Of a stretch of 64,000 nt of DNA, positions 1 to 59,093 are shown piece by piece. Where the stretch lies: the sequence record NC_000866.4, one strand, 5' to 3'. The stretch's first letter is position 1. Each line of letters begins with the position of its first letter. Origin of the DNA: Escherichia phage T4. The position numbers and the translations under genes are program-made. A model generated the notes under the pieces. It did no database searches and was not told the origin of the DNA. It worked only from the letters and a program-made list of their open reading frames with translations.

Positions 1-253
1 GCGTAATTAATCCTTTAAAAGGTCCATCAATAAATTCCATGGTAAAATATGGAATTTTATTCATTAGCCGTGCATTAGGAGCAGTGCACAAAACTCTGCA
101 TCCTTTGAATACGCCTTTTTGTAATTTGTATTGCTTGGGATAAAATTCGCTCAAAATGTTATTTTTTGCCAAAATTTCAAAATGATTCACCAATTTATTT
201 TTAATAGTTTTTGGCGAAAAATAAAGATATTCGAAAAGCTGAGTGTCTGTCAT
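1..253 (-). CDS. hypothetical protein, N-terminal part only (gene runs off the window start)
   Basis: ATG at 253..251 overlaps the stop of the upstream ORF (ATGA); minus-strand frame stays open to position 1; no recognisable motif. Confidence 0.4.
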   Translation of the reverse strand, partial: MTDTQLFEYLYFSPKTIKNKLVNHFEILAKNNILSEFYPKQYKLQKGVFKGCRVLCTAPNARLMNKIPYFTMEFIDGPFKGLIT

Positions 254-912
254 CATTGCATTCCGATTACGAAAAACTGTGGACGAGTAATACCACCAAT
301 GCAACATTTACTATTACAGCAGTAGTGTACGGTGTCAATATGGACACTATAAATCTTATCCATATCAGGAGATTTGACAGGCTCATCAATTATATACAAA
401 ATTCGCGAAAGCTTTAAACCTCTGAACTTGCTTCCTTTATTACCAATAAAACTGCGTACAGAATCAGTAAATAAACGAAAACGTATATCATCATTAGAAT
501 AACGCGAAAATTCCTTTTTGATGTTATTTGCAGAAATTTTAGCATAAGCTGAAGTATTAGAAAGAACAATAACTGTTCCGCCATCATACAACCAATTAGC
601 AGCAAAGTTAGTCACAGCAATTGATTTACCGGATTGACGTCCACCATCTAGTCGAAGTGTACAATACTGTTTAAGTAAGTCTTCAAATGGCGGGATATAT
701 TCGTTTTTACAAATTTCTTCTACTCTAGCATCAGAATGGTGTGTAAAAGCATTCATCAGGGATAGATAAGGACCAGTTAAAAATGTTCTCATTTCTTCTC
801 TATAAGCTCTATAAGTTTGGGCCATTCCGTGGCACATGAATTGTCCATTTCTGTATTTACCCATTACCGCGCTTGGGCTCGACCTTATTACAGGTTGGCG
901 GGAATCCCTCAT
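253..912 (-). CDS. P-loop NTPase-like hypothetical protein
   Basis: 219-aa ORF from the track; Walker-A-like GGRQSGKS; same orientation as and immediately downstream of denV. Confidence 0.55.
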   Translation of the reverse strand: MRDSRQPVIRSSPSAVMGKYRNGQFMCHGMAQTYRAYREEMRTFLTGPYLSLMNAFTHHSDARVEEICKNEYIPPFEDLLKQYCTLRLDGGRQSGKSIAVTNFAANWLYDGGTVIVLSNTSAYAKISANNIKKEFSRYSNDDIRFRLFTDSVRSFIGNKGSKFRGLKLSRILYIIDEPVKSPDMDKIYSVHIDTVHYCCNSKCCIGGITRPQFFVIGMQ

Positions 913-938
913 ATAATCATGAGGTCCAGGTTGTTCCC

Positions 939-1355
939 TTATGCATAAATCGCCTTACCGTAGTATTTGTACCAAGTAGGACGTTGTGCAATTTTTTCAT
1001 CTAAACGAGCTTGTGATATAGCAATAGAAGCTTCATGGGGAATATAATCACCACGGAATTCCTGAGGAATATCACTAATATCCTGGACTGTAGTATCCTT
1101 GATATTAAAACCACGTTTTAAACATTCAGCTATAAGCTCAATTTGACGTTTACGTAAGAACTCGAGCTTATCGTAAAAGAATGTAACATGACCTGCGCCA
1201 AGGATAAAAGTAGGACTGATTTTAAAATCACGAACACGTTTACCGTTAGCAACATGCTTACGAACTGCACCAAAAACACGCGGCAATTCACGATATTCAG
1301 CCATTAAGTGTTGGTCAGCCAATTCAGATACTAAAGTAAGGTTGATACGAGTCAT
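939..1355 (-). CDS. denV: endonuclease V, pyrimidine-dimer DNA glycosylase/AP lyase
   Basis: 138-aa ORF ([28 protein letters not shown]...) matches my recollection of T4 endonuclease V. Confidence 0.95.
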
Positions 1356-1384
1356 TTTAGTGTTCTCCTGTAGTTGATAGGTCT

Positions 1385-1413
1385 ATAGTATCATACCTAC
1401 AGGAGATGTAAAC
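1385..1413 (-). promoter_or_regulatory. early promoter (sigma70-like, -35 GTTTAC, 17-nt spacer, -10 TACTAT) for denV
   Basis: minus-strand GTTTAC at 1413..1408 and TACTAT at 1390..1385; followed by conserved leader CTATCAACTAC and SD AGGAG. Confidence 0.55.
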
Positions 1414-1415
1414 TG

Positions 1416-1718
1416 TTATTTATCTTTAATTGCTTTAGCTGCTTCGATAGCCGCTTGCTGAAGGTCATCCATAGACATGCCGAACTTAGAAGCAAAGTTA
1501 TCAATTTTCTTTTCGACGGCATTCAAAGGCTTGGCCTGTTTACCTTCATTAGCGCCAGGAAGAGCGAGAATACGCTCTCTGTCAATATAAAGGCTTACAA
1601 GTTTCTTACGGTCTTTATCGGGCAAATCATGAAATGAATGGGCCTTTTTATTTACAGCGGCTTCTAATTTACCTGCGCCCACTCGCGCTTCGGCAATAAA
1701 TTCTTGATATGTTTTCAT
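1416..1718 (-). CDS. ipII: internal protein II (packaged head protein)
   Basis: 100-aa ORF starting MKTYQEFIAEA (capsid targeting sequence shared with ipIII); position between denV and ipIII as in T4. Confidence 0.9.
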   Translation of the reverse strand: MKTYQEFIAEARVGAGKLEAAVNKKAHSFHDLPDKDRKKLVSLYIDRERILALPGANEGKQAKPLNAVEKKIDNFASKFGMSMDDLQQAAIEAAKAIKDK

Positions 1719-1769
1719 ATGTTTCCTTTAAATGTAAATATTTTTATTATTCTATCCTAGAATTGTGAT

Positions 1770-1799
1770 AATATATTCACAATTCTAGGAGTTGTAAAC
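1770..1799 (-). promoter_or_regulatory. early promoter upstream of ipII (-35 GTTTAC, -10 TATATT)
   Basis: minus-strand GTTTAC at 1799..1794; -10 overlaps the centre of a 14-bp perfect inverted repeat (1755..1768 / 1777..1790). Confidence 0.45.
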
Positions 1800-1833
1800 T
1801 GCTTTTATTTAAGCGTCCCAAGTATAAGCTTTA

Positions 1834-2415
1834 TTAAGAATTACCACGGGCTGCATTAGCAACGGCGTAAGCGTACTGAATATTAGCGTCTTTAAACTTA
1901 CCTTTAGAGGTATCTATTTCTGCCTTAAAGCCGCCTTTAGTCATAACATCGGCAAATTCTTTACGGAAAGCCATTGCATCAAGACCTTTCCATGATGATT
2001 TATGCTTGGCAAATTCAAGACCTGCGAAGTTGACAGCTTTAGCCAATTTATTATCAATGACCCATTTACCGGCTTTAGGCACAAACTTCGGGCCTTTCTG
2101 TTTAGAGAACAGTTTTAAATTCCAGCGGCGAAGGTCTGCATCAGCTTTAACAAATTCTGAGTCTAAGTTACTAGCAACAACATCTTCAATATGAGCAAAT
2201 TTAAGTCCGTCAACTTCAATATTTAAATCGGTACGCCAGCGAAGTCCTTCCCAAGCGAAGGCTTTAAAGTCGGAAGCCTTTGTAGCTAAGTACCGTTCAA
2301 TAGGAGCTGTTTTAGGGTCAAAGCCGTTTCCTGATCGGTAGGTCCACTCATCTTTGTTAATGCCTTTGGCCTTTACTACAGAAGCTTCGGCAATAAATTC
2401 TTGATATGTTTTCAT
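1834..2415 (-). CDS. ipIII: internal protein III (packaged head protein)
   Basis: 193-aa ORF starting MKTYQEFIAEA; 5' end and RBS lie in a 47-bp perfect repeat shared with ipII. Confidence 0.9.
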   Translation of the reverse strand: MKTYQEFIAEASVVKAKGINKDEWTYRSGNGFDPKTAPIERYLATKASDFKAFAWEGLRWRTDLNIEVDGLKFAHIEDVVASNLDSEFVKADADLRRWNLKLFSKQKGPKFVPKAGKWVIDNKLAKAVNFAGLEFAKHKSSWKGLDAMAFRKEFADVMTKGGFKAEIDTSKGKFKDANIQYAYAVANAARGNS

Positions 2416-2464
2416 ATGTTTCCTTTAAATATTTTAATTAGTAATTGTCTATTCAAGTAATTGT

Positions 2465-2498
2465 GAATATACTATCACAATTCCAAGAGAAAGTAAAC
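2465..2498 (-). promoter_or_regulatory. early promoter upstream of ipIII (-35 GTTTAC)
   Basis: minus-strand GTTTAC at 2498..2493; AT-rich -10 (ATAGTA/TATATT) 17-19 nt downstream; 8-bp inverted repeat AATTGTGA/TCACAATT around the -10. Confidence 0.45.
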
Positions 2499-2502
2499 AG
2501 CT

Positions 2503-3490
<988 letters not shown>

Positions 3491-3651
3491 TCAGTGATAA
3501 AGTTATTTAAATTTTGAGCATATTTCTTTTCATCAAAAATCTTTTGCTGTCTGCGTAACCGCCATGGCATTTCAATGAACATACGCCATATCCCTAGATA
3601 ATACCGCTGCTGTAAAAATATTAACAAGTATAGTTAAAAGAATCCAATCGC

Positions 3652-3960
3652 CTATTCTGTCCATTGGATTTTTATAAAAAAGTAAAATACGAATGATGAT
3701 ATAGGAAGACTAATGATATACCACAGAAGAACCTTCTTATCTGTGAACCAATCAGCATTCGTTAACTTAGCGCGACCATTTTGAATACACACGAATTTAT
3801 CATCTGTTACAGTAAATGGCTTAGCTGCTTGATATCCCATTCTAAACTCCCTAATTAATCGTTTCTTTGTATCTTCGGAACAACCATTCCAATCAACTCT
3901 ATCAACTGGAATGCCATCATCCCCATCATCTAAATCATACCAGCGAGTTTTTAAAATCAT
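3652..3960 (-). CDS. hypothetical early protein with C-terminal hydrophobic segment (T4 e.2 position)
   Basis: 102-aa ORF; C-terminal LLWYIISLPISSFVFYFFI looks like a transmembrane helix. Confidence 0.55.
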   Translation of the reverse strand: MILKTRWYDLDDGDDGIPVDRVDWNGCSEDTKKRLIREFRMGYQAAKPFTVTDDKFVCIQNGRAKLTNADWFTDKKVLLWYIISLPISSFVFYFFIKIQWTE

Positions 3961-4319
3961 TTAATTTTCCTGCAATCAATCACAAACTCTTTCATTGATT
4001 CATTTTCAATATAAGACATGTAGCTATTATATTCTTTTAATTGTATTTTGTAATCCTTTTTTCTTTGCCAATTTATTTTAAAATTATCATAATGAAAATA
4101 TAAAATGATACCAAAGAATGAAAACAATGAAATAATTTTAGTATAACAAAGCTCGCTCCAAACTTCTATTATATCTACTGTACCACTGATTTTTAAAATA
4201 AAACAGTCAATTAATAGTCCAATAAGACTACCTGTAAGAGCTGCAGCCAACGCCACAGCAAAAATTAAAAATGACTCAGAAAACGAATATTTGACTTTAT
4301 TTAGCTTTGGCTTTTGCAT
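3957..4319 (-). CDS. hypothetical small membrane protein (T4 e.3 position)
   Basis: 120-aa ORF with two hydrophobic helices; ATGA overlap with the upstream ORF. Confidence 0.55.
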   Translation of the reverse strand: MQKPKLNKVKYSFSESFLIFAVALAAALTGSLIGLLIDCFILKISGTVDIIEVWSELCYTKIISLFSFFGIILYFHYDNFKINWQRKKDYKIQLKEYNSYMSYIENESMKEFVIDCRKIK

Positions 4320-4714
4320 CGTGATTCCTTAACAAATTTCATAATTTCATTAAATTCATACTCAGCAAGTTTAAGCTGGTGTTCCTTTTTAATCTTTTTG
4401 CACTGGGCTTTCCAATCACGTACGCGTTTACGATAATGTCTTCCTTGATACCAGTATCCTATCCAATTTACGGGTACTAATAAAAATGGAACTACCAATG
4501 GAAGAGTTAGCATTAACATAATTATTACGCCAGAATCAATATCAGTCATAACATCTAAAACACCTCCAATAATCAATAGAATTACAAATGATATAGCTAT
4601 CACAGGACCTATTAATACATCAGTAGAAATTATCTGGCGCTTTAATTCATACTTCAAAGGTTTACTTGGAAGGTATAGTGATGGCTTTGACATATTCTCT
4701 ACATTCCTTAACAA
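4301..4714 (-). CDS. hypothetical small membrane protein (T4 e.4 position)
   Basis: 137-aa ORF with long hydrophobic stretches; start codon uncertain because the annotated start overlaps the upstream ORF by 53 nt. Confidence 0.5.
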   Translation of the reverse strand: MLRNVENMSKPSLYLPSKPLKYELKRQIISTDVLIGPVIAISFVILLIIGGVLDVMTDIDSGVIIMLMLTLPLVVPFLLVPVNWIGYWYQGRHYRKRVRDWKAQCKKIKKEHQLKLAEYEFNEIMKFVKESRCKSQS

Positions 4715-5270
4715 ATTTTTCTAGTAATAAATCACTTTCAAAATTAGGATTTTCCACTAATTTATCAAAAAGATCATCAACAATATTCAAGATATTTCTT
4801 TTACTAAGAATACGTTTATTTTCATGCTTCGTTTCAGAATCAACTATAAGAGTAAAGAAATATTTCTTTCCCTGAAATTTTACCGTAGTATCAATATAAA
4901 ATAAATTTGACTTTTGTAAATTACGTTTAAACCATGCGTCACTTAAACTATAAACACCGAGATAATCAAAATCGTCGTTTAAATAACAAACTGACCATTC
5001 AGGAGAAATGAAATCAGTAAATTCAACATCAAAATCACATGTCAATGAATGAATTGATTCAATACTGTTAATAAGTATTCCAGGACGTATTAAAGACTTT
5101 TTACCTCTGGAAAATCTTCCAGAAAGACTTTCATCAGTTTCATATGAAGAACCCCAATAATAATTACGTCCTTTTGCCATATGTTTAAGAGCATTTAGTA
5201 ATTGGTCTGGAACATCAACGTGTCTTTGGAACTCTTCAAACATTGAATTGAAATCACTTTGCATTTTCAT
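4662..5270 (-). CDS. hypothetical early protein (T4 e.5 position)
   Basis: 202-aa ORF; no motif recognised. Confidence 0.6.
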   Translation of the reverse strand: MKMQSDFNSMFEEFQRHVDVPDQLLNALKHMAKGRNYYWGSSYETDESLSGRFSRGKKSLIRPGILINSIESIHSLTCDFDVEFTDFISPEWSVCYLNDDFDYLGVYSLSDAWFKRNLQKSNLFYIDTTVKFQGKKYFFTLIVDSETKHENKRILSKRNILNIVDDLFDKLVENPNFESDLLLEKFVKECREYVKAITIPSK

Positions 5271-5290
5271 TCCTATTTACTCCAAGTAAT

Positions 5291-5306
5291 AGGGGCCGAA
5301 GCCCCT
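5291..5306 (-). other. GC-rich tetraloop RNA hairpin (AGGGGC-UUCG-GCCCCU on the transcript)
   Basis: perfect 6-bp GC stem with UUCG loop between e.6 and e.5; identical 19-mer recurs at 46166..46184. Confidence 0.5.
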
Positions 5307-5311
5307 TATCA

Positions 5312-5905
5312 TTATTTCAGAGAATTAATATATTCCTGAACATCGGCAGAGGTAGTTTCAACCCCAGAAATATTACCATTAAAGGTTTCAACTCGAGCAA
5401 GAGTATCTTCAATATCAACCTTAGTCAGTGCTGCAATTTCAACTACATCATCAGCAGTACTAATTCCAAGGGCATTTGCTGCACGAGTTTCACGGATATA
5501 TTCCAATTTAACTGCAAGTTCTTGGCGAGCATCATCTAACTCAACTACTTTCTTGGCGATTTCAATTCGCATTTCAGCATAACCATCAGCTTTAGTAGTC
5601 AGCTGTTCAGCTGTTCGACGATATAGCAAGCCGAGTTTAGCATGCATTGTTACATCTTGACCTTCGGAAAGAAGCTTGCGAATTTCACGCTCTTTTGATT
5701 CGGCCTGTTTATTCTTTTCAACAATAAGTTCACGAATACGTTTTTCTTCATTAATAGATTTAACAGAAGCAGTTTTTAGGTCTTTAATTTTATCAAGTAG
5801 TTTTGCTGCTGCAGCAGTATACTGTTCTTCAACAGATAGATTTTTAGCCATTGCAGAACCAAGTTTAGTGCGAATAAACTCAACAATTTTCTTCAGTGTG
5901 TTCAT
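5312..5905 (-). CDS. hypothetical coiled-coil protein (T4 e.6 position)
   Basis: 197-aa ORF rich in K/E/R/A with coiled-coil character; possible PspA/IM30-like fold (speculative). Confidence 0.6.
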
Positions 5906-5934
5906 AGTATTTCCTTAGGTTGGTATAATTAGAT

Positions 5935-5967
5935 AATATAATATCACGTTTCTAATAGATTGTAAAC
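5935..5967 (-). promoter_or_regulatory. early promoter (-35 GTTTAC) upstream of e.6
   Basis: minus-strand GTTTAC at 5967..5962; AT-rich -10 (ATATTA/TATTAT) after a 17-nt spacer. Confidence 0.4.
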
Positions 5968-6303
5968 TTATTCTTCGTCTAGCTCGTCGATAAAGGCGTT
6001 GATGGCCTCGATAATGGCATCATTGATAGCCAATAAAATAAAATCATCGTCAGTACCTTTAGAAGATTCTAAAGCATTGATATATGCTTGGTTGACGAGT
6101 TCCCAAGCCTTTTTAAAATAAGGAGCTTCATCATCAGGACAAATATCCCGCACGCCTTCAAAGATACGTTTGGCATAATCTAACACCCATTGTACAGGCA
6201 TGTTTTGAGAACGTTCGTTAAACTCTTTAAAGTCCTTAGATTCAAAAAGCTCTTCAGGATAATTATTTCTATTACAAAAAGCTTTACTAAAGTTACGTTT
6301 CAT
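5968..6303 (-). CDS. hypothetical acidic protein (T4 e.7 position)
   Basis: 111-aa ORF; no motif recognised. Confidence 0.6.
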   Translation of the reverse strand: MKRNFSKAFCNRNNYPEELFESKDFKEFNERSQNMPVQWVLDYAKRIFEGVRDICPDDEAPYFKKAWELVNQAYINALESSKGTDDDFILLAINDAIIEAINAFIDELDEE

Positions 6304-6324
6304 AATGTTTTCCTCATTTGTATA

Positions 6325-6359
6325 GGCTCATAATATCTCAATCATCAGCCTATGTAAAC
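6325..6359 (-). promoter_or_regulatory. early promoter (-35 GTTTAC) upstream of e.7
   Basis: minus-strand GTTTAC at 6359..6354; 7-bp inverted repeat ATAGGCT/AGCCTAT flanks the -10 region. Confidence 0.4.
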
Positions 6360-6623
6360 TTATTTCATATTATTGAAATATTCTTCTGCGATTTCGTCGT
6401 TATCATGGTAAACTTTAGAAGACAGTTTAACATAACTTTCAGCAGTGAACATGTTAATCACAACCTTTACAGTATACCACTGACCGTCTTCATTACCCAT
6501 TACTGCGTAAGTTTCAAACATCGGATGGTCAGGACCGATAACTTTAATATCATTCACCGTACGACCGAAATCTTCTGAAACACATTTCATAAAGAAGTTG
6601 AAAAGTTCACCGTAATTATCCAT
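6360..6623 (-). CDS. hypothetical protein (T4 e.8 position)
   Basis: start moved to the internal ATG at 6623 (SD GGAGAATAAA upstream) because the longer track ORF (to 6686) would begin upstream of its own promoter. Confidence 0.55.
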   Translation of the reverse strand: MDNYGELFNFFMKCVSEDFGRTVNDIKVIGPDHPMFETYAVMGNEDGQWYTVKVVINMFTAESYVKLSSKVYHDNDEIAEEYFNNMK

Positions 6624-6666
6624 TTTATTCTCCAAGTTATTTTCTGTATCAGTAGTTGATAGTTGT

Positions 6667-6696
6667 ATAGTACCATGGAAGAACAAGGATGTAAAC
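6667..6696 (-). promoter_or_regulatory. early promoter (-35 GTTTAC, -10 TACTAT) upstream of e.8
   Basis: minus-strand GTTTAC at 6696..6691, TACTAT at 6672..6667, conserved CTATCAACTAC leader downstream. Confidence 0.5.
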
Positions 6697-6828
6697 AGTT
6701 TTGTGAAAAAATTTTTAAAAAGTTTTAGGGAATTCTAGGGCGGAGAGGGGCAATTAAAAGATAGGATAATATATTATAAAGGGTATAAACTAAATGATGC
6801 CTAGAGAGGTCTGGAAAGGCTTAGATAC

Positions 6829-6857
6829 CAAAAAGCCCCAACCTTTCGGTCGGGGCT
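6829..6857 (-). terminator. rho-independent terminator ending the tRNA / stable-RNA transcription unit
   Basis: minus-strand transcript forms GCCCCGACC-GAAA-GGUUGGGGC (9-bp stem, GNRA loop) followed by UUUUU. Confidence 0.65.
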
Positions 6858-7172
6858 AACCGTTGCGGCAACCTTGTCGGGGTTCCACCTGCCAAGGCAA
6901 GTGTTTGTACGAAACGCCGGGATTCGAACCCGGTTATTAAGTAGTTGACGCTACTCAATATTTTTAAAAGGCCATATCTCAACCATATCCGAACGTTCCG
7001 TCAAAAACGCTACTCGGCTTACGGCAAAGATATTTCCTCGAATCGATAATTTGGTGCGCCGTTTCTGCTGTGATGTAAGAGGGCATCAATAAACGCAAAG
7101 ATTATTAACGCAATTCCTTACTCAGGGAACCATCAGTCCGACGACTTACCGGTAGCGACCCGGTTTCTCATT
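6858..7172 (-). ncRNA. two small stable tRNA-like RNAs (T4 species 1 / species 2 RNAs, rnaC and rnaD); internal boundary not resolved
   Basis: non-coding ~315-nt interval between tRNA-Arg and the terminator; contains a tRNA-like T-arm (CCGGG-UUCGAAU-CCCGG); matches the position of the T4 stable RNAs. Confidence 0.45.
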
Positions 7173-7247
7173 TGGTATCCCGCCCTGGGATCGAACCAGG
7201 ACCGCAAACTTAGAAGGATCGTATGCTATCCATTACACCAGCGGGAC
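7173..7247 (-). tRNA. tRNA-Arg (anticodon TCT), CCA encoded
   Basis: reverse complement reads GTCCCGC...CCTTCTAAG...GGTTCGATCC...GCGGGATACCA with a paired acceptor stem and canonical T-arm. Confidence 0.85.
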
Positions 7248-7252
7248 GTAAT

Positions 7253-7918
7253 TTAAAATTTCATTTTTCGACCTTTAAACCATCCTTCTGGAATTGGGTC
7301 AGTTTTCTTAATACGTTTAGAAACTTTTTCATCTAATGAATGAATCCACATCATACCGAATTGGGAATTCTTTTCACCTTTCTGGTGATTATTTTTGGCG
7401 TGAGATTCTTTCATTTTATTAATAGTTTCAGGAGTATGATGCTTATTTAGAAATCTGCTATTATTTAAAAATTTTTCCCTGTATTCAGGAGTTGACCACA
7501 AACGTTTAAATACATTTGAACCAATTTTACGATATTTTTCTTGAAGTAAAATATCATTTTCAAAACGTGACTTAAACGATTTAGCTCCTTTTAAGCTAGC
7601 ATCTTTCTTCTGGTTTAGCATTCCAGGAATATTTACATGATCCCATCCACCTTCACCGCCAAGTTTTAAATTATACACATCTGGTCTATTTAAAAACTCT
7701 TCTGTGACAATATTTTTCTCGGCTTCAAGCATAGATTCTTTATCGTCAAAATACTCTAATATTTCTTTAGAAAAATTTTCTATACCATATTTATCTTGGG
7801 CTCTTTTTAATAATTTACCAGAACCCATATATCCATCATCTAAATTTTCGGTAGAATGCACACCAATATAAATTTTATTATTAATTTTATTTGTTATTTT
7901 ATAAGTGTAATAGAACAT
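7253..7918 (-). CDS. segB: GIY-YIG homing endonuclease
   Basis: 221-aa ORF with GIY-YIG motif (KIYIGVHSTENLDDGYMGSG); inserted between tRNA-Ile and tRNA-Arg as in T4. Confidence 0.85.
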   Translation of the reverse strand: MFYYTYKITNKINNKIYIGVHSTENLDDGYMGSGKLLKRAQDKYGIENFSKEILEYFDDKESMLEAEKNIVTEEFLNRPDVYNLKLGGEGGWDHVNIPGMLNQKKDASLKGAKSFKSRFENDILLQEKYRKIGSNVFKRLWSTPEYREKFLNNSRFLNKHHTPETINKMKESHAKNNHQKGEKNSQFGMMWIHSLDEKVSKRIKKTDPIPEGWFKGRKMKF

Positions 7919-7959
7919 AAATATCTCCTATTTCTAAGAGTATTTATGTTCTCAAAATA

Positions 7960-8033
7960 TGACCCAGACCAGATTTGAACTGGTAACCTTTCCCTTATGA
8001 GGGGACTGCTGCTAACCATTGAGCTACAGGGCC
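7960..8033 (-). tRNA. tRNA-Ile (anticodon CAT; would score as Met by anticodon alone)
   Basis: reverse complement GGCCCTGTAGCTCAATGG...CTCATAA...GGTTACCAGTTCAAATCTGGT; last tRNA of the 7-gene subcluster, the position of T4 tRNA-Ile. Confidence 0.8.
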
Positions 8034-8034
8034 T

Positions 8035-8110
8035 TGGTGCTGATTGACGGAATCGAACCGCCGACATCCTCATTACAAGTGAGGTGCTCTACCTACTGAG
8101 CTAAATCAGC
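8035..8110 (-). tRNA. tRNA-Thr (anticodon TGT), CCA encoded
   Basis: reverse complement GCTGATTTAGCTCAGTAGGTAGAGCACCTCACTTGTAATGAGG...GGTTCGATTCC...AATCAGCACCA; fully paired acceptor stem. Confidence 0.9.
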
Positions 8111-8117
8111 AAAATTA

Positions 8118-8204
8118 CGGAGGCGATAGGATTTGAACCTATGAGTCGCCGGAGCGACTGCCGGTTTTCAAGACCGGTGCATTAAACCACTCTGCCACGC
8201 CTCC
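8118..8204 (-). tRNA. tRNA-Ser (anticodon TGA), long variable arm
   Basis: reverse complement GGAGGCGTGGCAGAGTGG...CTTGAAA...GGTTCAAATCC...CGCCTCCG; acceptor stem GGAGGCG/CGCCTCC. Confidence 0.9.
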
Positions 8205-8206
8205 AG

Positions 8207-8280
8207 TCTCCATACAAGGATTTGAACCTTGGACCTCCTGATCCCAAATCAGGCGCTCTACCAAACTGAGCTACACGGAG
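8207..8280 (-). tRNA. tRNA-Pro (anticodon TGG)
   Basis: reverse complement CTCCGTGTAGCTCAGTTTGGTAGAGCGCCTGATTTGGGATCAGG...GGTTCAAATCC; anticodon stem CCTGA/TCAGG. Confidence 0.85.
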
Positions 8281-8290
8281 TAAATTAAAT

Positions 8291-8364
<74 letters not shown>

Positions 8365-8369
8365 AAATT

Positions 8370-8456
8370 TGGTGCGAGAAGTGGGACTCGAACCCACAAG
8401 GAAATCATTCCGCAGCATTTTAAGTGCTGTGCCTTTACCAATTTGACCATTCTCGC
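8370..8456 (-). tRNA. tRNA-Leu (anticodon TAA), long variable arm, CCA encoded
   Basis: reverse complement GCGAGAATGGTCAAATTGGTAAAGGCACAGCACTTAAAATGCTG...GGGTTCGAGTCCC...TTCTCGCACCA. Confidence 0.9.
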
Positions 8457-8457
8457 G

Positions 8458-8530
8458 CTGGGAATAAAGGACTCGAACCTTTGCATCTAGCAGTCAAAGT
8501 GCTATGCCTTACCAACTTGGCTAATTCCCA
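8458..8530 (-). tRNA. tRNA-Gln (anticodon TTG)
   Basis: reverse complement TGGGAATTAGCCAAGTTGGTAAGGCATAGCACTTTGACTGCTA...AGGTTCGAGTCCT...ATTCCCAG. Confidence 0.9.
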
Positions 8531-8594
8531 ATTATTAACAAAGGCTCTCTAACAAGAACCCTTGATGATAGAGGGTATTAATCAGTGCGGTATG

Positions 8595-8625
8595 AGTTAA
8601 TAATAACAAATAATTCTTAAAGCAT
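8595..8625 (-). promoter_or_regulatory. candidate middle promoter (MotA box ATGCTTTA plus AT-rich -10) for the tRNA cluster
   Basis: minus-strand ATGCTTTA at 8625..8618 matches the MotA-box consensus (a/t)(a/t)TGCTT(t/c)A; -10 assignment uncertain. Confidence 0.3.
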
Positions 8626-8627
8626 AT

Positions 8628-8921
8628 TTACCATTTATGATGATACGTATTTACGATACATTCAAGACCCAAAGGATTCTTGAAAATATCATATTCAAGA
8701 GGACCTTTTTCTGTTTCAATAAAGAAATCAAAATTTACTGTATTAAATTTACGGTCTTCCTTTACTAATTTAACTTGAGAAGATGAACGATCAATGTAAA
8801 CCTTTTCAACTTCAAAACACGTTAAAATGCCATAATCATCAATCAAGGCTTTAGCTGCTTCTTGATCATATTTATATCCATTTTCAACGGATGATACTTT
8901 CGCATAAAGAATCATCATCAA
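8628..8921 (-). CDS. hypothetical protein (T4 tRNA.2 position)
   Basis: 97-aa ORF; ATGA overlap with the upstream ORF. Confidence 0.55.
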   Translation of the reverse strand: MMMILYAKVSSVENGYKYDQEAAKALIDDYGILTCFEVEKVYIDRSSSQVKLVKEDRKFNTVNFDFFIETEKGPLEYDIFKNPLGLECIVNTYHHKW

Positions 8922-9328
8922 CCTCTATCAACAATAGCATGAGTATGGGCATTTACGATTTGCCACCAGTCGAAACGATTGGAACCATAATCTGGTTTAT
9001 TTTCATTTTCTTTAATGATATCACGCAGTTTATCTTCTGTTTCAGCATACGCAATTAAATCATCATATCCACCACAAGGATAATAATTATCACCTGCGAA
9101 TAAAAGAAAATTTACCTTAGATGGATTTACGTAATAATGGTCTTTAGGATATTTAGTTCCTCTCCAATCAGTTACTTCAACATAACGGTAAGAAAATCCA
9201 TTTTTACTTTCAATCCAACTCCACGCTTCAAAAGGAGTATTAAAAACTTTATCAGGTATTAAATTACCTTCAAAATGAGAAGGATTTGCATAATCCCCGG
9301 CATAAACATAATATTCGTTAATACTCAT
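8918..9328 (-). CDS. hypothetical protein (T4 tRNA.3 position)
   Basis: 136-aa ORF rich in aromatic residues; no motif recognised. Confidence 0.55.
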   Translation of the reverse strand: MSINEYYVYAGDYANPSHFEGNLIPDKVFNTPFEAWSWIESKNGFSYRYVEVTDWRGTKYPKDHYYVNPSKVNFLLFAGDNYYPCGGYDDLIAYAETEDKLRDIIKENENKPDYGSNRFDWWQIVNAHTHAIVDRG

Positions 9329-9514
9329 TTATTCACCTTTAGAAATTTTATCCATAACGATAGCAATTAAACCAATTAAAAATGCTACTACAAGTGAAAA
9401 CACATTTTCTGCTGTAGTTAATAATCCGCATATAAATCCAACAAACATTGAAAAACTAAAAGCAGAAGCAGAAATTGCAATAGCAACATTTCGAATTAAT
9501 TCACAGCGTTTCAT
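9329..9514 (-). CDS. hypothetical small membrane protein (T4 tRNA.4 position)
   Basis: 61-aa ORF with two hydrophobic helices; SD GAGGAG upstream; directly downstream of an early promoter. Confidence 0.5.
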   Translation of the reverse strand: MKRCELIRNVAIAISASAFSFSMFVGFICGLLTTAENVFSLVVAFLIGLIAIVMDKISKGE

Positions 9515-9542
9515 TTTATTCTCCTCAGTAGTTGATAGGGTA

Positions 9543-9572
9543 ATAGTATCACAGCTAAAACCCTATGTAAAC
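9543..9572 (-). promoter_or_regulatory. early promoter (-35 GTTTAC, 18-nt spacer, -10 TACTAT)
   Basis: minus-strand GTTTAC at 9572..9567, TACTAT at 9548..9543, conserved CTATCAACTAC leader; upstream AACTTTGTGAAA shared with the ipI promoter. Confidence 0.55.
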
Positions 9573-9590
9573 AACTTTGTGAAATATTTA

Positions 9591-9878
9591 TTACAAAAGA
9601 TTTTTAGCAATAATCTTGAGATGTGCCGCAGAAATGTGTTTAGCTTTAAACAACGCAGTTTCTTCAGCAGGAGAGATAACGATTGTAGCACCATCCTTTT
9701 TAGCAGACCACCCATCACCTAGGTAAACAGTACCTTTGATTTCTTCGCCATCAACCAGACTAATCATTGGTTTACCTTCTCGTCCTTTATTTGCTTTAAT
9801 AACTTCAGAAGTAAGAGTAGCTTCGGTAATGGTAGAAACCGGGGTAGTTGTAGAAGTAAATTCTTTAAATGTTTTCAT
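9591..9878 (-). CDS. ipI: internal protein I (packaged anti-restriction protein)
   Basis: 95-aa ORF (MKTFKEFTSTTTPVSTITEATL...) matching T4 IPI as I recall it. Confidence 0.9.
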   Translation of the reverse strand: MKTFKEFTSTTTPVSTITEATLTSEVIKANKGREGKPMISLVDGEEIKGTVYLGDGWSAKKDGATIVISPAEETALFKAKHISAAHLKIIAKNLL

Positions 9879-9909
9879 TTTTATTTTCCTAATTAATTTT
9901 GATGAGGTA

Positions 9910-9939
9910 ATAGTATCACTACCTCATCAGTATGTAAAC
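9910..9939 (-). promoter_or_regulatory. early promoter for ipI (-35 GTTTAC, -10 TACTAT)
   Basis: minus-strand GTTTAC at 9939..9934, TACTAT at 9915..9910; 9-bp inverted repeat GATGAGGTA/TACCTCATC flanks the -10. Confidence 0.55.
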
Positions 9940-9951
9940 AACTTTGTGAAA

Positions 9952-10648
<697 letters not shown>

Positions 10649-10649
<1 letters not shown>

Positions 10650-11374
10650 TATAGTACCTTTAGTGTATTTTTAATTTTAGAAAAAAGTTCTTCAAGAGAA
10701 CCATCGTTTGTAATTACTAAATCGCCATCACGAATTGGCAATCCAGCTTCTGTAATATGTGTATCATTGGATTTTTGACCAGGACGAACTACATGAATTA
10801 CTGTAGCACCCATCGCCCTAGCCGCATCCATTTCATGATCTTGACGGGTATCAGGAACGATATAATAATCATAACCTGAGTTAAATTTATCAAGATAATC
10901 TAAAGCAAATAATTTTACCCAGTACATGCGGTCGAAGTTATTAACAATCAAATCCGTACCTAGGGCTTGCATCAGACGACGGACTGACCATTGATCTTCA
11001 ATATTATTTATAACGTCAGTAATCTTATTAAATGCTACGAAATTAACTGATTCTTTTCCTTCGTCATCAAAAACAAACACACCTTTAATTGGGCTTTTAC
11101 CATTAAGATAACAAAATGCTTGTTCCATAATCGTGATTACTTCTAATTTAGTCAGATTTAAATTAGTCTCACGATCATAGTCAATTCCTTCAAACTCTTT
11201 ACGAGTTAAGCAAGGATAGTCAGTGTTTGCTGCAAATACTCCCCATGCATAAGCCAATGCATCCTTAATAGGACCAGCAAGTTGGTATTTAACTGCAGAA
11301 TAATTGCTCATGATAAAATCAGCAGTAGTATCTTTTCCACTACGCTTTACACCGCTTAAAAAGATTAGTTTCAT
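10649..11374 (-). CDS. 1: deoxynucleoside monophosphate kinase
   Basis: 241 aa from the ATG at 11374 (SD GAGGAG); P-loop GVKRSGKDT; the track ORF extends 13 codons further upstream. Confidence 0.9.
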
Positions 11375-11423
11375 GTGTTTCTCCTCAAATTTAATTAAGA
11401 TTATAACACACAAAACTGAAGCA

Positions 11424-11954
11424 TTAAACTTCTGCTATAATTTTACCATCTTTTTCTACTTGAAAATAGGTGTAAGGAATTGTTGCAGTACATACTAAAG
11501 CCGGGTCTGAATCTTCCGTGTAGCTAAATTCTACTTCAGATAGGTCAGAAACCCAAGGCTTATAAAAATTTATTGACATCACGATTTCAGTTTTGCTATT
11601 ATCTAAGATGTAAAGCGTAATGTACTCAGGACCTGTTTTTTGGGCAGTATTTTCACCTGTAAGATAGTTGCTAGTTCCTAGCATCCATTCATACATTCCT
11701 ATCCACGACTTAAGTTCTTCATCAACTATAAATCTCACAATGAGTGGATCATACTCAAATGTAACACCTGGACGTTGTGCTCGGCCCAGTCCAAACGGCC
11801 CAGTCACGGTATCAGTAACAGGTATTCTAATTCCTGGAATAGGAACTGACTGAGCATTTAAAGTAAAAGCAGATGTAGTATTACTATGTGGTATTGATAC
11901 TACAAAGTTAGTTGTATTTGCTTGGTTAAAAATTTGTTGCAGAGCTTGCGACAT
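11424..11954 (-). CDS. 3: tail completion / tail tube terminator protein gp3
   Basis: 176 aa from the ATG at 11954 (SD GAGGAA); the track ORF extends 27 codons upstream. Confidence 0.8.
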   Translation of the reverse strand: MSQALQQIFNQANTTNFVVSIPHSNTTSAFTLNAQSVPIPGIRIPVTDTVTGPFGLGRAQRPGVTFEYDPLIVRFIVDEELKSWIGMYEWMLGTSNYLTGENTAQKTGPEYITLYILDNSKTEIVMSINFYKPWVSDLSEVEFSYTEDSDPALVCTATIPYTYFQVEKDGKIIAEV

Positions 11955-12060
11955 ATATTCCTCATAATGCTTTATAACTGTTGGTGGTATAATGGGTCTA
12001 AGTCCCTTCCATTCAATTCCATTTAGAACAAACAACAGAAAAGAATGGAAGATAATAGAA

Positions 12061-13975: not shown

Positions 13976-15686
13976 TAACCTTAATTGGTTTGTCGGTGTT
14001 GTTGAAGATAGAATGGACCCATTAAAATTAGGTCGTGTTCGTGTTCGTGTGGTTGGTCTGCATCCACCTCAAAGAGCACAAGGTGATGTAATGGGTATTC
14101 CAACTGAAAAATTACCATGGATGTCAGTTATTCAACCTATAACTTCTGCAGCAATGTCTGGAATTGGAGGTTCTGTTACTGGACCAGTAGAAGGAACTAG
14201 AGTTTATGGTCATTTTTTAGACAAATGGAAAACTAATGGAATTGTCCTTGGCACGTATGGTGGAATAGTTCGCGAAAAACCGAATAGACTTGAAGGATTT
14301 TCTGACCCAACTGGGCAGTATCCTAGACGTTTAGGAAATGATACTAACGTACTAAACCAAGGTGGAGAAGTAGGATATGATTCGTCTTCTAACGTTATCC
14401 AAGATAGTAACTTAGACACCGCAATAAATCCCGATGATAGACCGCTATCAGAGATTCCGACCGATGATAATCCAAATATGTCAATGGCTGAAATGCTTCG
14501 CCGTGATGAAGGATTAAGATTAAAAGTTTATTGGGATACCGAAGGATATCCGACAATTGGTATTGGTCATCTTATCATGAAGCAGCCAGTTCGTGATATG
14601 GCTCAAATTAATAAAGTTTTATCAAAACAAGTTGGTCGTGAAATTACAGGAAATCCAGGTTCTATTACAATGGAAGAGGCGACGACTTTATTTGAGCGTG
14701 ATTTGGCTGATATGCAACGGGACATTAAATCACATTCTAAAGTAGGACCAGTCTGGCAAGCTGTCAACCGTTCTCGTCAAATGGCGTTAGAAAATATGGC
14801 ATTTCAGATGGGTGTTGGTGGTGTAGCTAAATTTAACACAATGTTAACTGCTATGTTAGCAGGAGATTGGGAAAAAGCGTATAAAGCCGGTCGTGATTCA
14901 TTGTGGTATCAACAAACAAAAGGCCGTGCATCCCGTGTTACCATGATTATTCTTACGGGGAATTTGGAATCATATGGTGTTGAAGTGAAAACCCCAGCTA
15001 GGTCTCTATCAGCAATGGCTGCTACTGTAGCTAAATCTTCTGACCCTGCTGACCCTCCTATTCCAAATGACTCGAGAATTTTATTCAAAGAACCAGTTTC
15101 TTCATATAAAGGTGAATATCCTTATGTGCATACAATGGAAACTGAAAGCGGACATATTCAGGAATTTGATGATACCCCTGGGCAAGAACGATATAGATTA
15201 GTTCATCCAACTGGAACTTATGAAGAAGTATCACCATCAGGAAGAAGAACAAGAAAAACTGTTGATAATTTGTATGATATAACCAATGCTGATGGTAATT
15301 TTTTGGTAGCCGGTGATAAAAAGACTAACGTCGGTGGTTCAGAAATTTATTATAACATGGATAATCGTTTACATCAAATCGATGGAAGCAATACAATATT
15401 TGTACGTGGAGACGAAACGAAAACTGTTGAAGGTAATGGAACTATCCTAGTTAAAGGTAATGTTACTATTATAGTTGAAGGTAATGCTGACATTACAGTT
15501 AAAGGAGATGCTACCACTTTAGTTGAAGGAAATCAAACTAACACAGTAAATGGAAATCTTTCTTGGAAAGTTGCCGGGACAGTTGATTGGGATGTCGGTG
15601 GTGATTGGACAGAAAAAATGGCATCTATGAGTTCTATTTCATCTGGTCAATACACAATTGATGGATCGAGGATTGACATTGGCTAA
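13959..15686 (+). CDS. 5: baseplate central spike with lysozyme domain, gp5
   Basis: 575-aa ORF; internal lysozyme domain (EMLRRDEGLRLKVYWDTEGYPTIGIGHLI) paralogous to e; C-terminal VxGxxxxx beta-helix repeats. Confidence 0.95.
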   Translation: MEMISNNLNWFVGVVEDRMDPLKLGRVRVRVVGLHPPQRAQGDVMGIPTEKLPWMSVIQPITSAAMSGIGGSVTGPVEGTRVYGHFLDKWKTNGIVLGTYGGIVREKPNRLEGFSDPTGQYPRRLGNDTNVLNQGGEVGYDSSSNVIQDSNLDTAINPDDRPLSEIPTDDNPNMSMAEMLRRDEGLRLKVYWDTEGYPTIGIGHLIMKQPVRDMAQINKVLSKQVGREITGNPGSITMEEATTLFERDLADMQRDIKSHSKVGPVWQAVNRSRQMALENMAFQMGVGGVAKFNTMLTAMLAGDWEKAYKAGRDSLWYQQTKGRASRVTMIILTGNLESYGVEVKTPARSLSAMAATVAKSSDPADPPIPNDSRILFKEPVSSYKGEYPYVHTMETESGHIQEFDDTPGQERYRLVHPTGTYEEVSPSGRRTRKTVDNLYDITNADGNFLVAGDKKTNVGGSEIYYNMDNRLHQIDGSNTIFVRGDETKTVEGNGTILVKGNVTIIVEGNADITVKGDATTLVEGNQTNTVNGNLSWKVAGTVDWDVGGDWTEKMASMSSISSGQYTIDGSRIDIG

Positions 15687-59032: not shown

Positions 59033-59057
59033 TTTGTGTTCCTCATGTTATGTTAGT

Positions 59058-59093
59058 AAGACTACTATAACACAACACGAGGGACTTGTAAAC
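59058..59093 (-). promoter_or_regulatory. early promoter (-35 GTTTAC, -10 TATAGT) upstream of alt.-3
   Basis: minus-strand GTTTAC at 59093..59088 with TATAGT after an 18-nt spacer. Confidence 0.45.

Follow-up and report, generated by a model that had tools for sequence, protein, structure and literature searches.

In the genome of Escherichia phage T4, the interval 9527-9939 of a 64,000 nt stretch (record NC_000866.4; the whole stretch is called the window here, and positions refer to it) lies among the genes 57B, ipI and trna.4, all annotated on the minus strand, and carries two promoter-like cassettes in which short inverted repeats bracket the -10 hexamer. The locus raises two questions, namely what such cassettes are, and what the inverted repeats within them may do. 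As to the first, these two sites and seven others in the window are almost certainly T4 early promoters (Pe), used by the unmodified sigma-70 RNA polymerase of E. coli just after injection. As to the second, the -35/-10 spacer is, in many promoters of this type, complementary to the leader that follows, in a pattern more in keeping with translational gating of read-through transcripts than with classical termination. The sites, the stem-loops that overlap them, and their role in shuffling around the internal-protein (IP) genes are already annotated or published, and T4 early promoters are textbook examples of very strong sigma-70 promoters, the finding being real but ordinary: a real regulatory family recognised from its sequence alone. 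Of specialist interest is the strong spacer:leader complementarity over about 100 promoters, which often involves the Shine-Dalgarno (SD) sequence and comes without a T tail.

Nine early promoters in the window

Gene names are those of the T4T annotation (HM137666). The 2 kb around the interval was 100% identical to several T4 records, including X03016 and HM137666, and the window corresponds approximately to T4T 63,990-128,000, a few small indels separating the two.

The original prediction was of a family of minus-strand sites sharing GTTTAC, and all nine of them were found (plus-strand GTAAAC at 1408, 1794, 2493, 5962, 6354, 6691, 9567, 9934 and 59088). Their -10 hexamers, described as TACTAT-like, do all conform to TAnnnT, but exact TACTAT is present at only five of the nine, the rest being TATATT, TAGTAT, TATTAT (twice) and TATAGT. 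A search of the window for GTTTAC-N16-19-TANNAT gave 9 matches against 1.10 expected, a number reached by 0 of 100 shuffles, and seven of these matches were predicted sites; the ipII and alt.-3 sites, with TATATT and TATAGT, were missed by TANNAT and recovered with TAnnnT. The -35 is GTTTAC(A/T) at all nine. Seven sites were listed in a generic sigma-70 scan, in the form TTTACA-N17-TAnnnT except at denV, where the spacer is N16, while at ipIII and alt.-3, beyond the list or range of that scan, the distance from GTTTAC to the -10 is 18 nt, as in the N17 sites.

The elements flanking these hexamers also recur. The upstream element TTTCACAAAGTT adjoins GTTTAC at 9573-9584 and 9940-9951, and its variant TTTCACAAAACT stands at 6697-6708, as had been predicted; TTTCACAAARYT is directly next to GTTTAC at the same three sites, and the 18-mer made of this UP-like element and GTTTAC matched three times in the window against 0 expected. 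Scanned in full, the T4T genome yielded about 35 promoters of the GTTTAC type, on the early strand. In the logo of 35 T4 promoters, A occupies -40 in 31, -41 in 25 and -44 in 26, the G of the extended -10 is at -14 in 32, and T-12, A-11 and T-7 are invariant, these last being positions demanded by the search pattern. Within the window, the TG of the extended -10 was flagged by the scan at 1412, 5966, 6695, 9571 and 9938, and is also legible at 2498 and 59093; at ipII it is one base farther upstream, and at e.7 TGn is absent. The predicted +1 is an A at eight of the nine sites, as read from the sequence.

The location of the sites is as telling as their composition. Unannotated DNA makes up 4.0% of the region, and eight of the nine sites lie entirely within it, each with a co-oriented gene directly downstream (denV, ipII, ipIII, e.6, e.7, e.8, trna.4 and ipI); the ninth, before alt.-3, is also co-oriented and overlaps the 3' end of the degenerate alt.-2 open reading frame. 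Of the motif matches checked, 8 of 11 were entirely in gaps (8 of 12 if a plus-strand match in gene 5 is included), with a binomial tail of 5e-11 when computed for 9 of 12, and the remaining matches other than the alt.-3 site were intragenic, in genes 2, 12 and 5. The motif is not equally dense in coding sequence, since eight sites are confined to the unannotated 4%. The plus-strand match inside gene 5, at 15367-15397 near repEA/oriE, has the form GTTTAC-N19-TACAAT, a spacing that exceeds that of a standard early promoter.

In the published consensus of T4 early promoters, GTTTAC occupies -36..-31, and the stretch at -40..-44 is rich in A and resembles an UP element (PMC1524935); these promoters have been described as 'uber' promoters with UP, -35, TGn and -10 elements that outcompete host promoters for sigma-70 polymerase (PMC2988021). 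By differential RNA sequencing (dRNA-seq) of T4, the early -10 motif was TGTG(A/G)TA(C/T)(A/T)AT, and A was found at 90 of 150 start sites (bioRxiv 10.1101/2024.04.04.588121); a T4 dRNA-seq data set is public as GSE255091. At the window sites, the A/T-rich UP region, including TTTCACAAAGTT at about -48..-37, would be bound by the alpha C-terminal domains of the polymerase, and the further parts recognised would be GTTTAC at -36..-31, the extended -10 TGn and TAnnnT at -12..-7, with the predicted start at the A seven bases past the -10.

Both cassettes of the interval are also annotated in GenBank X03016 (window position = 11787 - X). Its PE2 has a -35 at 1849-1855 (window 9938-9932) and a -10 at 1872-1877 (9915-9910), overlain by a 'pot. 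stem-loop structure' at 1850-1894; PE1 has a -35 at 2216-2222 (9571-9565) and a -10 at 2239-2245 (9548-9542), overlain by a 'pot. stem-loop structure pot. IpI terminator' at 2213-2250. Consensus match, location and this annotation together bear out the prediction of early promoter cassettes placed before individual small early genes. The features are as follows, with z-scores taken from folds of the stretch from spacer to start codon.

9934..9939, minus strand: ipI promoter, -35 GTTTAC (PE2 of X03016), from motif search and X03016
9910..9915, minus strand: ipI promoter, -10 TACTAT, preceded by GTGA (TGn), with the A at 9903 as predicted +1
9940..9951, minus strand: ipI promoter, proximal UP-region element TTTCACAAAGTT, from motif search
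9900..9929, minus strand: predicted ipI hairpin, its 5' arm within the -35/-10 spacer, its loop holding the -10 and its 3' arm covering -6..+4; -17.4 kcal/mol, z -5.62; stem-loop of X03016
9567..9572, minus strand: trna.4 promoter, -35 GTTTAC (PE1 of X03016), from motif search and X03016
9543..9548, minus strand: trna.4 promoter, -10 TACTAT, from motif search and X03016
9573..9584, minus strand: trna.4 promoter, UP-region element TTTCACAAAGTT, from motif search
9528..9538, minus strand: trna.4 promoter, 11-mer CTATCAACTAC at -2..+9, continuing into the SD GAGGAG; predicted +1 is the A at 9536
9535..9566, minus strand: weaker predicted trna.4 hairpin, ATAGGGT/ACCCTAT bracketing the -10; z -1.61; potential IpI terminator of X03016
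1364..1413, minus strand: denV promoter, GTTTAC 1408-1413, TACTAT 1385-1390, 11-mer 1370-1380; predicted +1 at 1378
1364-1406, minus strand: predicted denV hairpin, z -4.25, whose 3' arm CUACAGGAGA includes the denV SD
1755..1799, minus strand: ipII promoter, GTTTAC 1794-1799, TATATT 1770-1775, 14-bp predicted hairpin 1755-1790 around the -10, z -6.79; predicted +1 at 1763
2460..2498, minus strand: ipIII promoter, GTTTAC 2493-2498, TAGTAT 2469-2474, arms AATTGTGA/TCACAATT, z -1.91; predicted +1 at 2462
5938..5967, minus strand: e.6 promoter, GTTTAC and TATTAT, no significant hairpin, z +1.00; predicted +1 at 5931
6322..6359, minus strand: e.7 promoter, GTTTAC 6354-6359, TATTAT 6330-6335, predicted hairpin 6322-6353, z -6.05; predicted +1 at 6323
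6652..6708, minus strand: e.8 promoter, UP element TTTCACAAAACT 6697-6708, GTTTAC 6691-6696, TACTAT 6667-6672, 11-mer 6652-6662, z -1.25; predicted +1 at 6660
59039..59093, minus strand: alt.-3 promoter, GTTTAC 59088-59093, TATAGT 59064-59069, 3' arm of the predicted hairpin over the SD GAGG, z -6.02; predicted +1 at 59057

Several points weigh against the identification. The generic sigma-70 scan gave 55 hits against 47.3 expected in shuffled sequence, which in AT-rich DNA is no separation from background and is uninformative, so that the case depends on the T4-specific consensus. The promoter elements of X03016 are labelled 'put.' (putative), the +1 at all nine sites was placed by spacing, with GTTTAC taken as -36..-31, and the e.6 site has a T at its predicted +1 as well as lacking a hairpin. 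The generic count is also what would speak for the sites being chance matches in AT-rich DNA and no real family, but that reading is ruled out by the motif, 18-mer and location counts given above, is further opposed by the annotation of PE1 and PE2, and retains next to no probability.

In a comparison over window 800-9000, the offset between window and T4T coordinates changes from 63,989 at the start of the window to 63,978 at 9000, which points to small indels; e.2, which is split in the T4T annotation, is a candidate, unconfirmed, for an indel region.

The leader 11-mer

Three of the sites had been predicted to be followed by the same 11-mer, and exact copies of CTATCAACTAC are indeed present at 1370-1380, 6652-6662 and 9528-9538, although the second had been placed one base off, at 6651..6661. 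The T4 genome contains seven exact copies, upstream of imm.1, nrdC.9, denV, e.8, trna.4, motA and ndd.6, and all of them begin exactly 4 nt past an early -10 hexamer. Because GTTTAC was placed at -36..-31, the 11-mer spans -2..+9 and its A is +1, the +1..+9 part being AUCAACUAC. The logo of 35 T4 promoters shows moderate conservation at C-3, C-2, T-1, A+1, T+2, C+3, A+4 and A+5, and in related phages many promoters have CTATCAA, or something close to it, after the -10. In several T4 promoters, identity extends far past the 11-mer, as aaaaattttttcacaaaacNGTTTAC...TACTATACAACTATCAACTACTGATACGGATTTGGAGAATAAAATG.

It had been left open whether the 11-mer marks a transcription start or a processing site. 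A fixed offset from the -10 in all seven genomic copies, with an A at the expected +1, is the pattern that a start site predicts, and for this reason a processing site was rejected as most likely not the explanation. Most likely, the 11-mer belongs to a single promoter subfamily with a much longer leader in common, and is its start-site region and first transcribed stretch, the start itself having been located by spacing. Its conservation stems from shared ancestry of the cassettes or from their exchange by recombination, and probably also from a CCT-A-TCAA start context that suits a strong promoter.

Pairing between spacer and leader

Inverted repeats around the -10 had been noted at most of the sites, and they are real: five of the nine folds were strong (z <= -4.25), three were weak and one, at e.6, was absent, the ranking from strongest to weakest being ipII, e.7, alt.-3, ipI, denV, ipIII, trna.4, e.8 and e.6. 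The 5' arms are always in the -35/-10 spacer, and the 3' arms lie just past the -10, extending over the SD in denV and alt.-3. The e.7 spacer (window 6330-6359) contains a strain polymorphism within the stem, ATAGGCTGATG here against ATAGGCTCATG in T4T HM137666, and with the T4T base the uninterrupted pairs of the stem increase from 7 to 9 (ATAGGCTCA/TGAGCCTAT).

Fixed-register covariation (-17:-6, -18:-5 and so on) among 100 promoters was weak (z at most 2.8), and the arm registers vary from promoter to promoter; likewise, a MAFFT alignment of 23 promoters of the anti-SD class did not bring their 3' arms into register. Because the arms sit in differing registers, the duplex energies of cognate and non-cognate spacer:leader pairs were compared instead. 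For 37 T4 promoters, the duplex of a spacer with its own leader averaged -11.55 kcal/mol against -6.86 for non-cognate pairs, and 0 of 20,000 permutations were as good. Promoters of relatives were then added from IMG/VR, retrieved through gp57B and DenV, which with those of T4 gave 97 distinct promoters. Their mean energies were -12.65 kcal/mol for cognate pairs, -7.55 for unrelated non-cognate pairs and -6.58 for shuffled spacers. Cognate pairing outdid at least 95% of unrelated leaders in 49% of these promoters, and was weak in 22 of the 97. The best cognate duplex covers the SD in 39 of the 97, and is directly beside the -10 in 25.

Orthologous promoters provide a second line of evidence. 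Before trna.4, the arms are GGGCTA/TAGCCC in one case and GGGTTA/TAACCC in another, and before denV they are ATCTCCTGTAG/CTACAGGAGA, TTCCTCCAAG/CTTGGAGGAA or ATCTCCGTTTG/CAAACGGAGAT, in each case differing in sequence yet remaining complementary. Since cognate pairing is better than non-cognate pairing, and since the differing arms of orthologues stay complementary, the spacer:leader complementarity is, on this comparative sequence evidence, selected and not accidental.

Which nucleic acid does the pairing was less clearly indicated. Duplex energies favoured the sense over the antisense strand (59 against 32, p = 2e-4), about half of this difference being compositional, and the sense-strand advantage was -1.18 kcal/mol for cognate against -0.54 for non-cognate pairs. 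G-U pairs make up 99 of 1056 pairs on the sense strand; on the opposite strand they would turn into A-C mismatches, and in a cruciform of DNA into G-T mismatches.

An Rfam scan of window 1-12000 returned only eight tRNAs. These are the genes of the T4 tRNA cluster (window 7176-8530, minus strand), with segB and two small stable RNAs among or beside them.

Portable cassettes

The cassette had been predicted to be a portable expression module, which agrees with the published concept of PeSL (promoter-early stem-loop) elements at the IP loci (PMC2839356, PMC4122927) and with patterns in the relatives. In T4-type phages, the PeSL cassettes are proposed to bring about the shuffling of modules (PMC2839356, PMC4122927), and the authors of the concept cite Repoila 1994 for PeSL-like elements at the IP loci of T-even phages (PMC2839356). 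Among relatives, the region between 57B and trna.4 contains from one to three promoter cassettes with differing IP-type genes, and the T4 trna.4 promoter has a spacer like that of one relative's promoter and a leader like that of another's.

Other duplications were seen as well. In one relative from IMG/VR (L021, 3677-3740), the -10 and leader are partially duplicated in tandem (TACTATTACCTCATCAAGATACTATTACCTCATCAAAATTAATTAGG), resembling a scar of recombination or slippage. The alt.-3 cassette (59039-59093), which reads GTTTAC AAGTCCCTCGTGTTGTGT TATAGT AGTCTTACTAACATAACATGAGGA, matches, with few differences over about 50 nt, the rnlA-alc cassette 13 kb away (T4T 123110 and 136352, the second beyond the window), the two being a duplicated promoter-plus-leader unit. 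The imm.1 and ndd.6 promoters (T4T 27065 and 167101, beyond the window) share the UP element, the -10, the entire 5' leader and the first codons (ATGAAAATCGCT), and here the duplicated unit seemingly takes in the first part of a signal peptide or membrane peptide.

Possible roles of the hairpins

With +1 where it is predicted, the start of each promoter falls inside its own hairpin, and the 5' arm would be missing from the transcript made there. With its 5' arm upstream of the predicted start, the hairpin cannot arise in the promoter's own transcript, and would form only in read-through RNA from an upstream promoter, or in DNA. Three roles, which are not mutually exclusive, may be considered: translational gating is conceivable and is put forward tentatively, attenuation is rather doubtful, and a purely DNA-level role is improbable.

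If the inverted repeats are a translation switch that depends on transcript origin, the 5' arm in the spacer would pair with the leader or SD in read-through RNA, masking the SD and possibly shielding its GGAG from RegB, while RNA from the promoter itself, having no 5' arm, would be open. Such a switch can only be suggested, but several results are in keeping with it. The best duplex covers the SD more often (39 of 97 promoters) than it lies directly beside the -10 (25), and the SD is masked in the folds of denV (CUCCUGUAG/CUACAGGAG, z -4.25) and alt.-3 (z -6.02). Relatives have anti-SD:SD pairs with differing flanks, such as ATCTCCATTTGG/CCAAATGGAGAT, ATCTCCTTTTAGT/ACTAAAAGGAGAT and TTCCTCCAAG/CTTGGAGGAA, the principle has been established for e, soc, 49 and I-TevI, and RNA structure is also known to block RegB (PMC3014915). 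On the other side, predicted folds of the long transcripts show SD pairing in denV and alt.-3, and weakly in e.8, but the hairpins of ipI and trna.4 (the two focal promoters), and of ipII, ipIII and e.7, make no contact with the SD. The 22 promoters with weak pairing, and the small size of the sense-strand advantage, also count against it.

In the published view of PeSL elements, the inverted repeats are RNA attenuators or terminators that stop or thin out upstream transcripts and insulate each cassette, a role that seems somewhat unlikely for the T4 hairpins. The stem-loops of RB49 and phi1 were tested in lacZ reporters for promoter and terminator activity and interpreted as terminator/attenuator (PMC2839356), the hairpin at the trna.4 promoter is labelled a potential IpI terminator in X03016, and the hairpins stand just past the upstream stop codon. 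However, no T run follows any of the promoter-embedded stems, A-rich leaders being found there instead, and none of these stems is among the 11 terminator-like sites of window 1-12000. To the PeSL authors themselves, the elements of T-even phages were analogs whose stems are weaker and AT-rich (PMC2839356), and for PST/T4 the stem-loop was placed upstream of the promoter (PMC4122927). In addition, many 3' arms reach the SD, which a terminator does not need.

A hairpin of canonical terminator form does occur nearby, in contrast to the promoter-embedded stems. It is at window 6834-6857 on the minus strand, downstream of rnaC/rnaD, with the e.8 early promoter following about 140 nt farther on, and consists of AGCCCCGACCGAAAGGTTGGGGCT followed by TTTTTGG, with 10 pairs of which 7 are G-C, a strong likeness to an intrinsic terminator.

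The inverted repeats and the shared leader could also matter in DNA only, as substrates or scars of recombination or by tuning melting and promoter escape, but this is the least probable of the three roles. It would accord with the differences among relatives in how many promoter cassettes and IP-type genes stand between 57B and trna.4, the composite spacer and leader of the T4 trna.4 promoter, the tandem duplicate at L021 3677 and the near-identical 50-nt cassettes at T4T 123110 and 136352, as well as with the PeSL mini-circles shown by inverse PCR in RB49/phi1 (PMC2839356). Recombination, however, explains shared sequence and not the complementarity within a promoter of arms that differ between promoters, and the 99 of 1056 sense-strand pairs that are G-U would be G-T mismatches in a cruciform.

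Returning to translational gating, the pairing of spacer and leader might be a general feature of early promoters in the Tevenvirinae, kept by compensatory change and acting as a switch that reports transcript origin, although this wider claim is speculative. Read-through RNA would fold, with the SD (often GGAG, the RegB target) masked or the leader structured, while RNA from the promoter itself would be open. If true, the mechanism so far known from the four genes e, soc, 49 and I-TevI would apply to a large part of the early genes, and the 'terminator' half of the PeSL-like elements of T-even phages would have to be seen in a new light.

Comparison with known systems

The relationship of the window sites to the T4 early promoters (Pe) is one of identity: the organism and the sites are the same, they are on the early strand before early genes, and there is no essential difference. 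The 11-mer and the spacer:leader complementarity are details left unspelled in the T4 promoter papers examined.

PeSL elements (Arbiol 2010; Comeau 2014) are similar in that an early promoter is combined with a stem-loop in one short intergenic element, as at five of the nine sites here with z <= -4.25 and, more weakly, at three others. They are also similar in flanking small variable genes, here those of the ipI, ipII and ipIII loci, for which modular shuffling has been proposed. The RB49/phi1 copies differ in having near-perfect TTGACA/TATAAT promoters and stems of G-runs and C-runs, and the T-even IP elements were regarded by the PeSL authors as analogs and not homologs (PMC2839356). Compared with PeSL, the T4 stems are richer in AT, have no T tail and often reach the SD.

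In e, soc, 49 and I-TevI, a promoter likewise lies inside a hairpin, with long transcripts that hide the SD and own-promoter transcripts that lack the 5' arm (PMC3014915), and the predicted folds of denV and alt.-3 share this geometry of the e/soc type. The difference is that those four genes have an internal promoter of the late or middle class and an early long transcript, whereas here both are early, and many of the early-promoter hairpins described here exclude the SD.

The early promoters of phage N4 are a further case in which a short inverted repeat is part of the promoter, as here. A phage-encoded, single-subunit virion RNA polymerase recognises those of N4 in the form of extruded hairpins, whereas at the T4 sites the promoters are ordinary sigma-70 ones in duplex form, with freely variable arm sequences.

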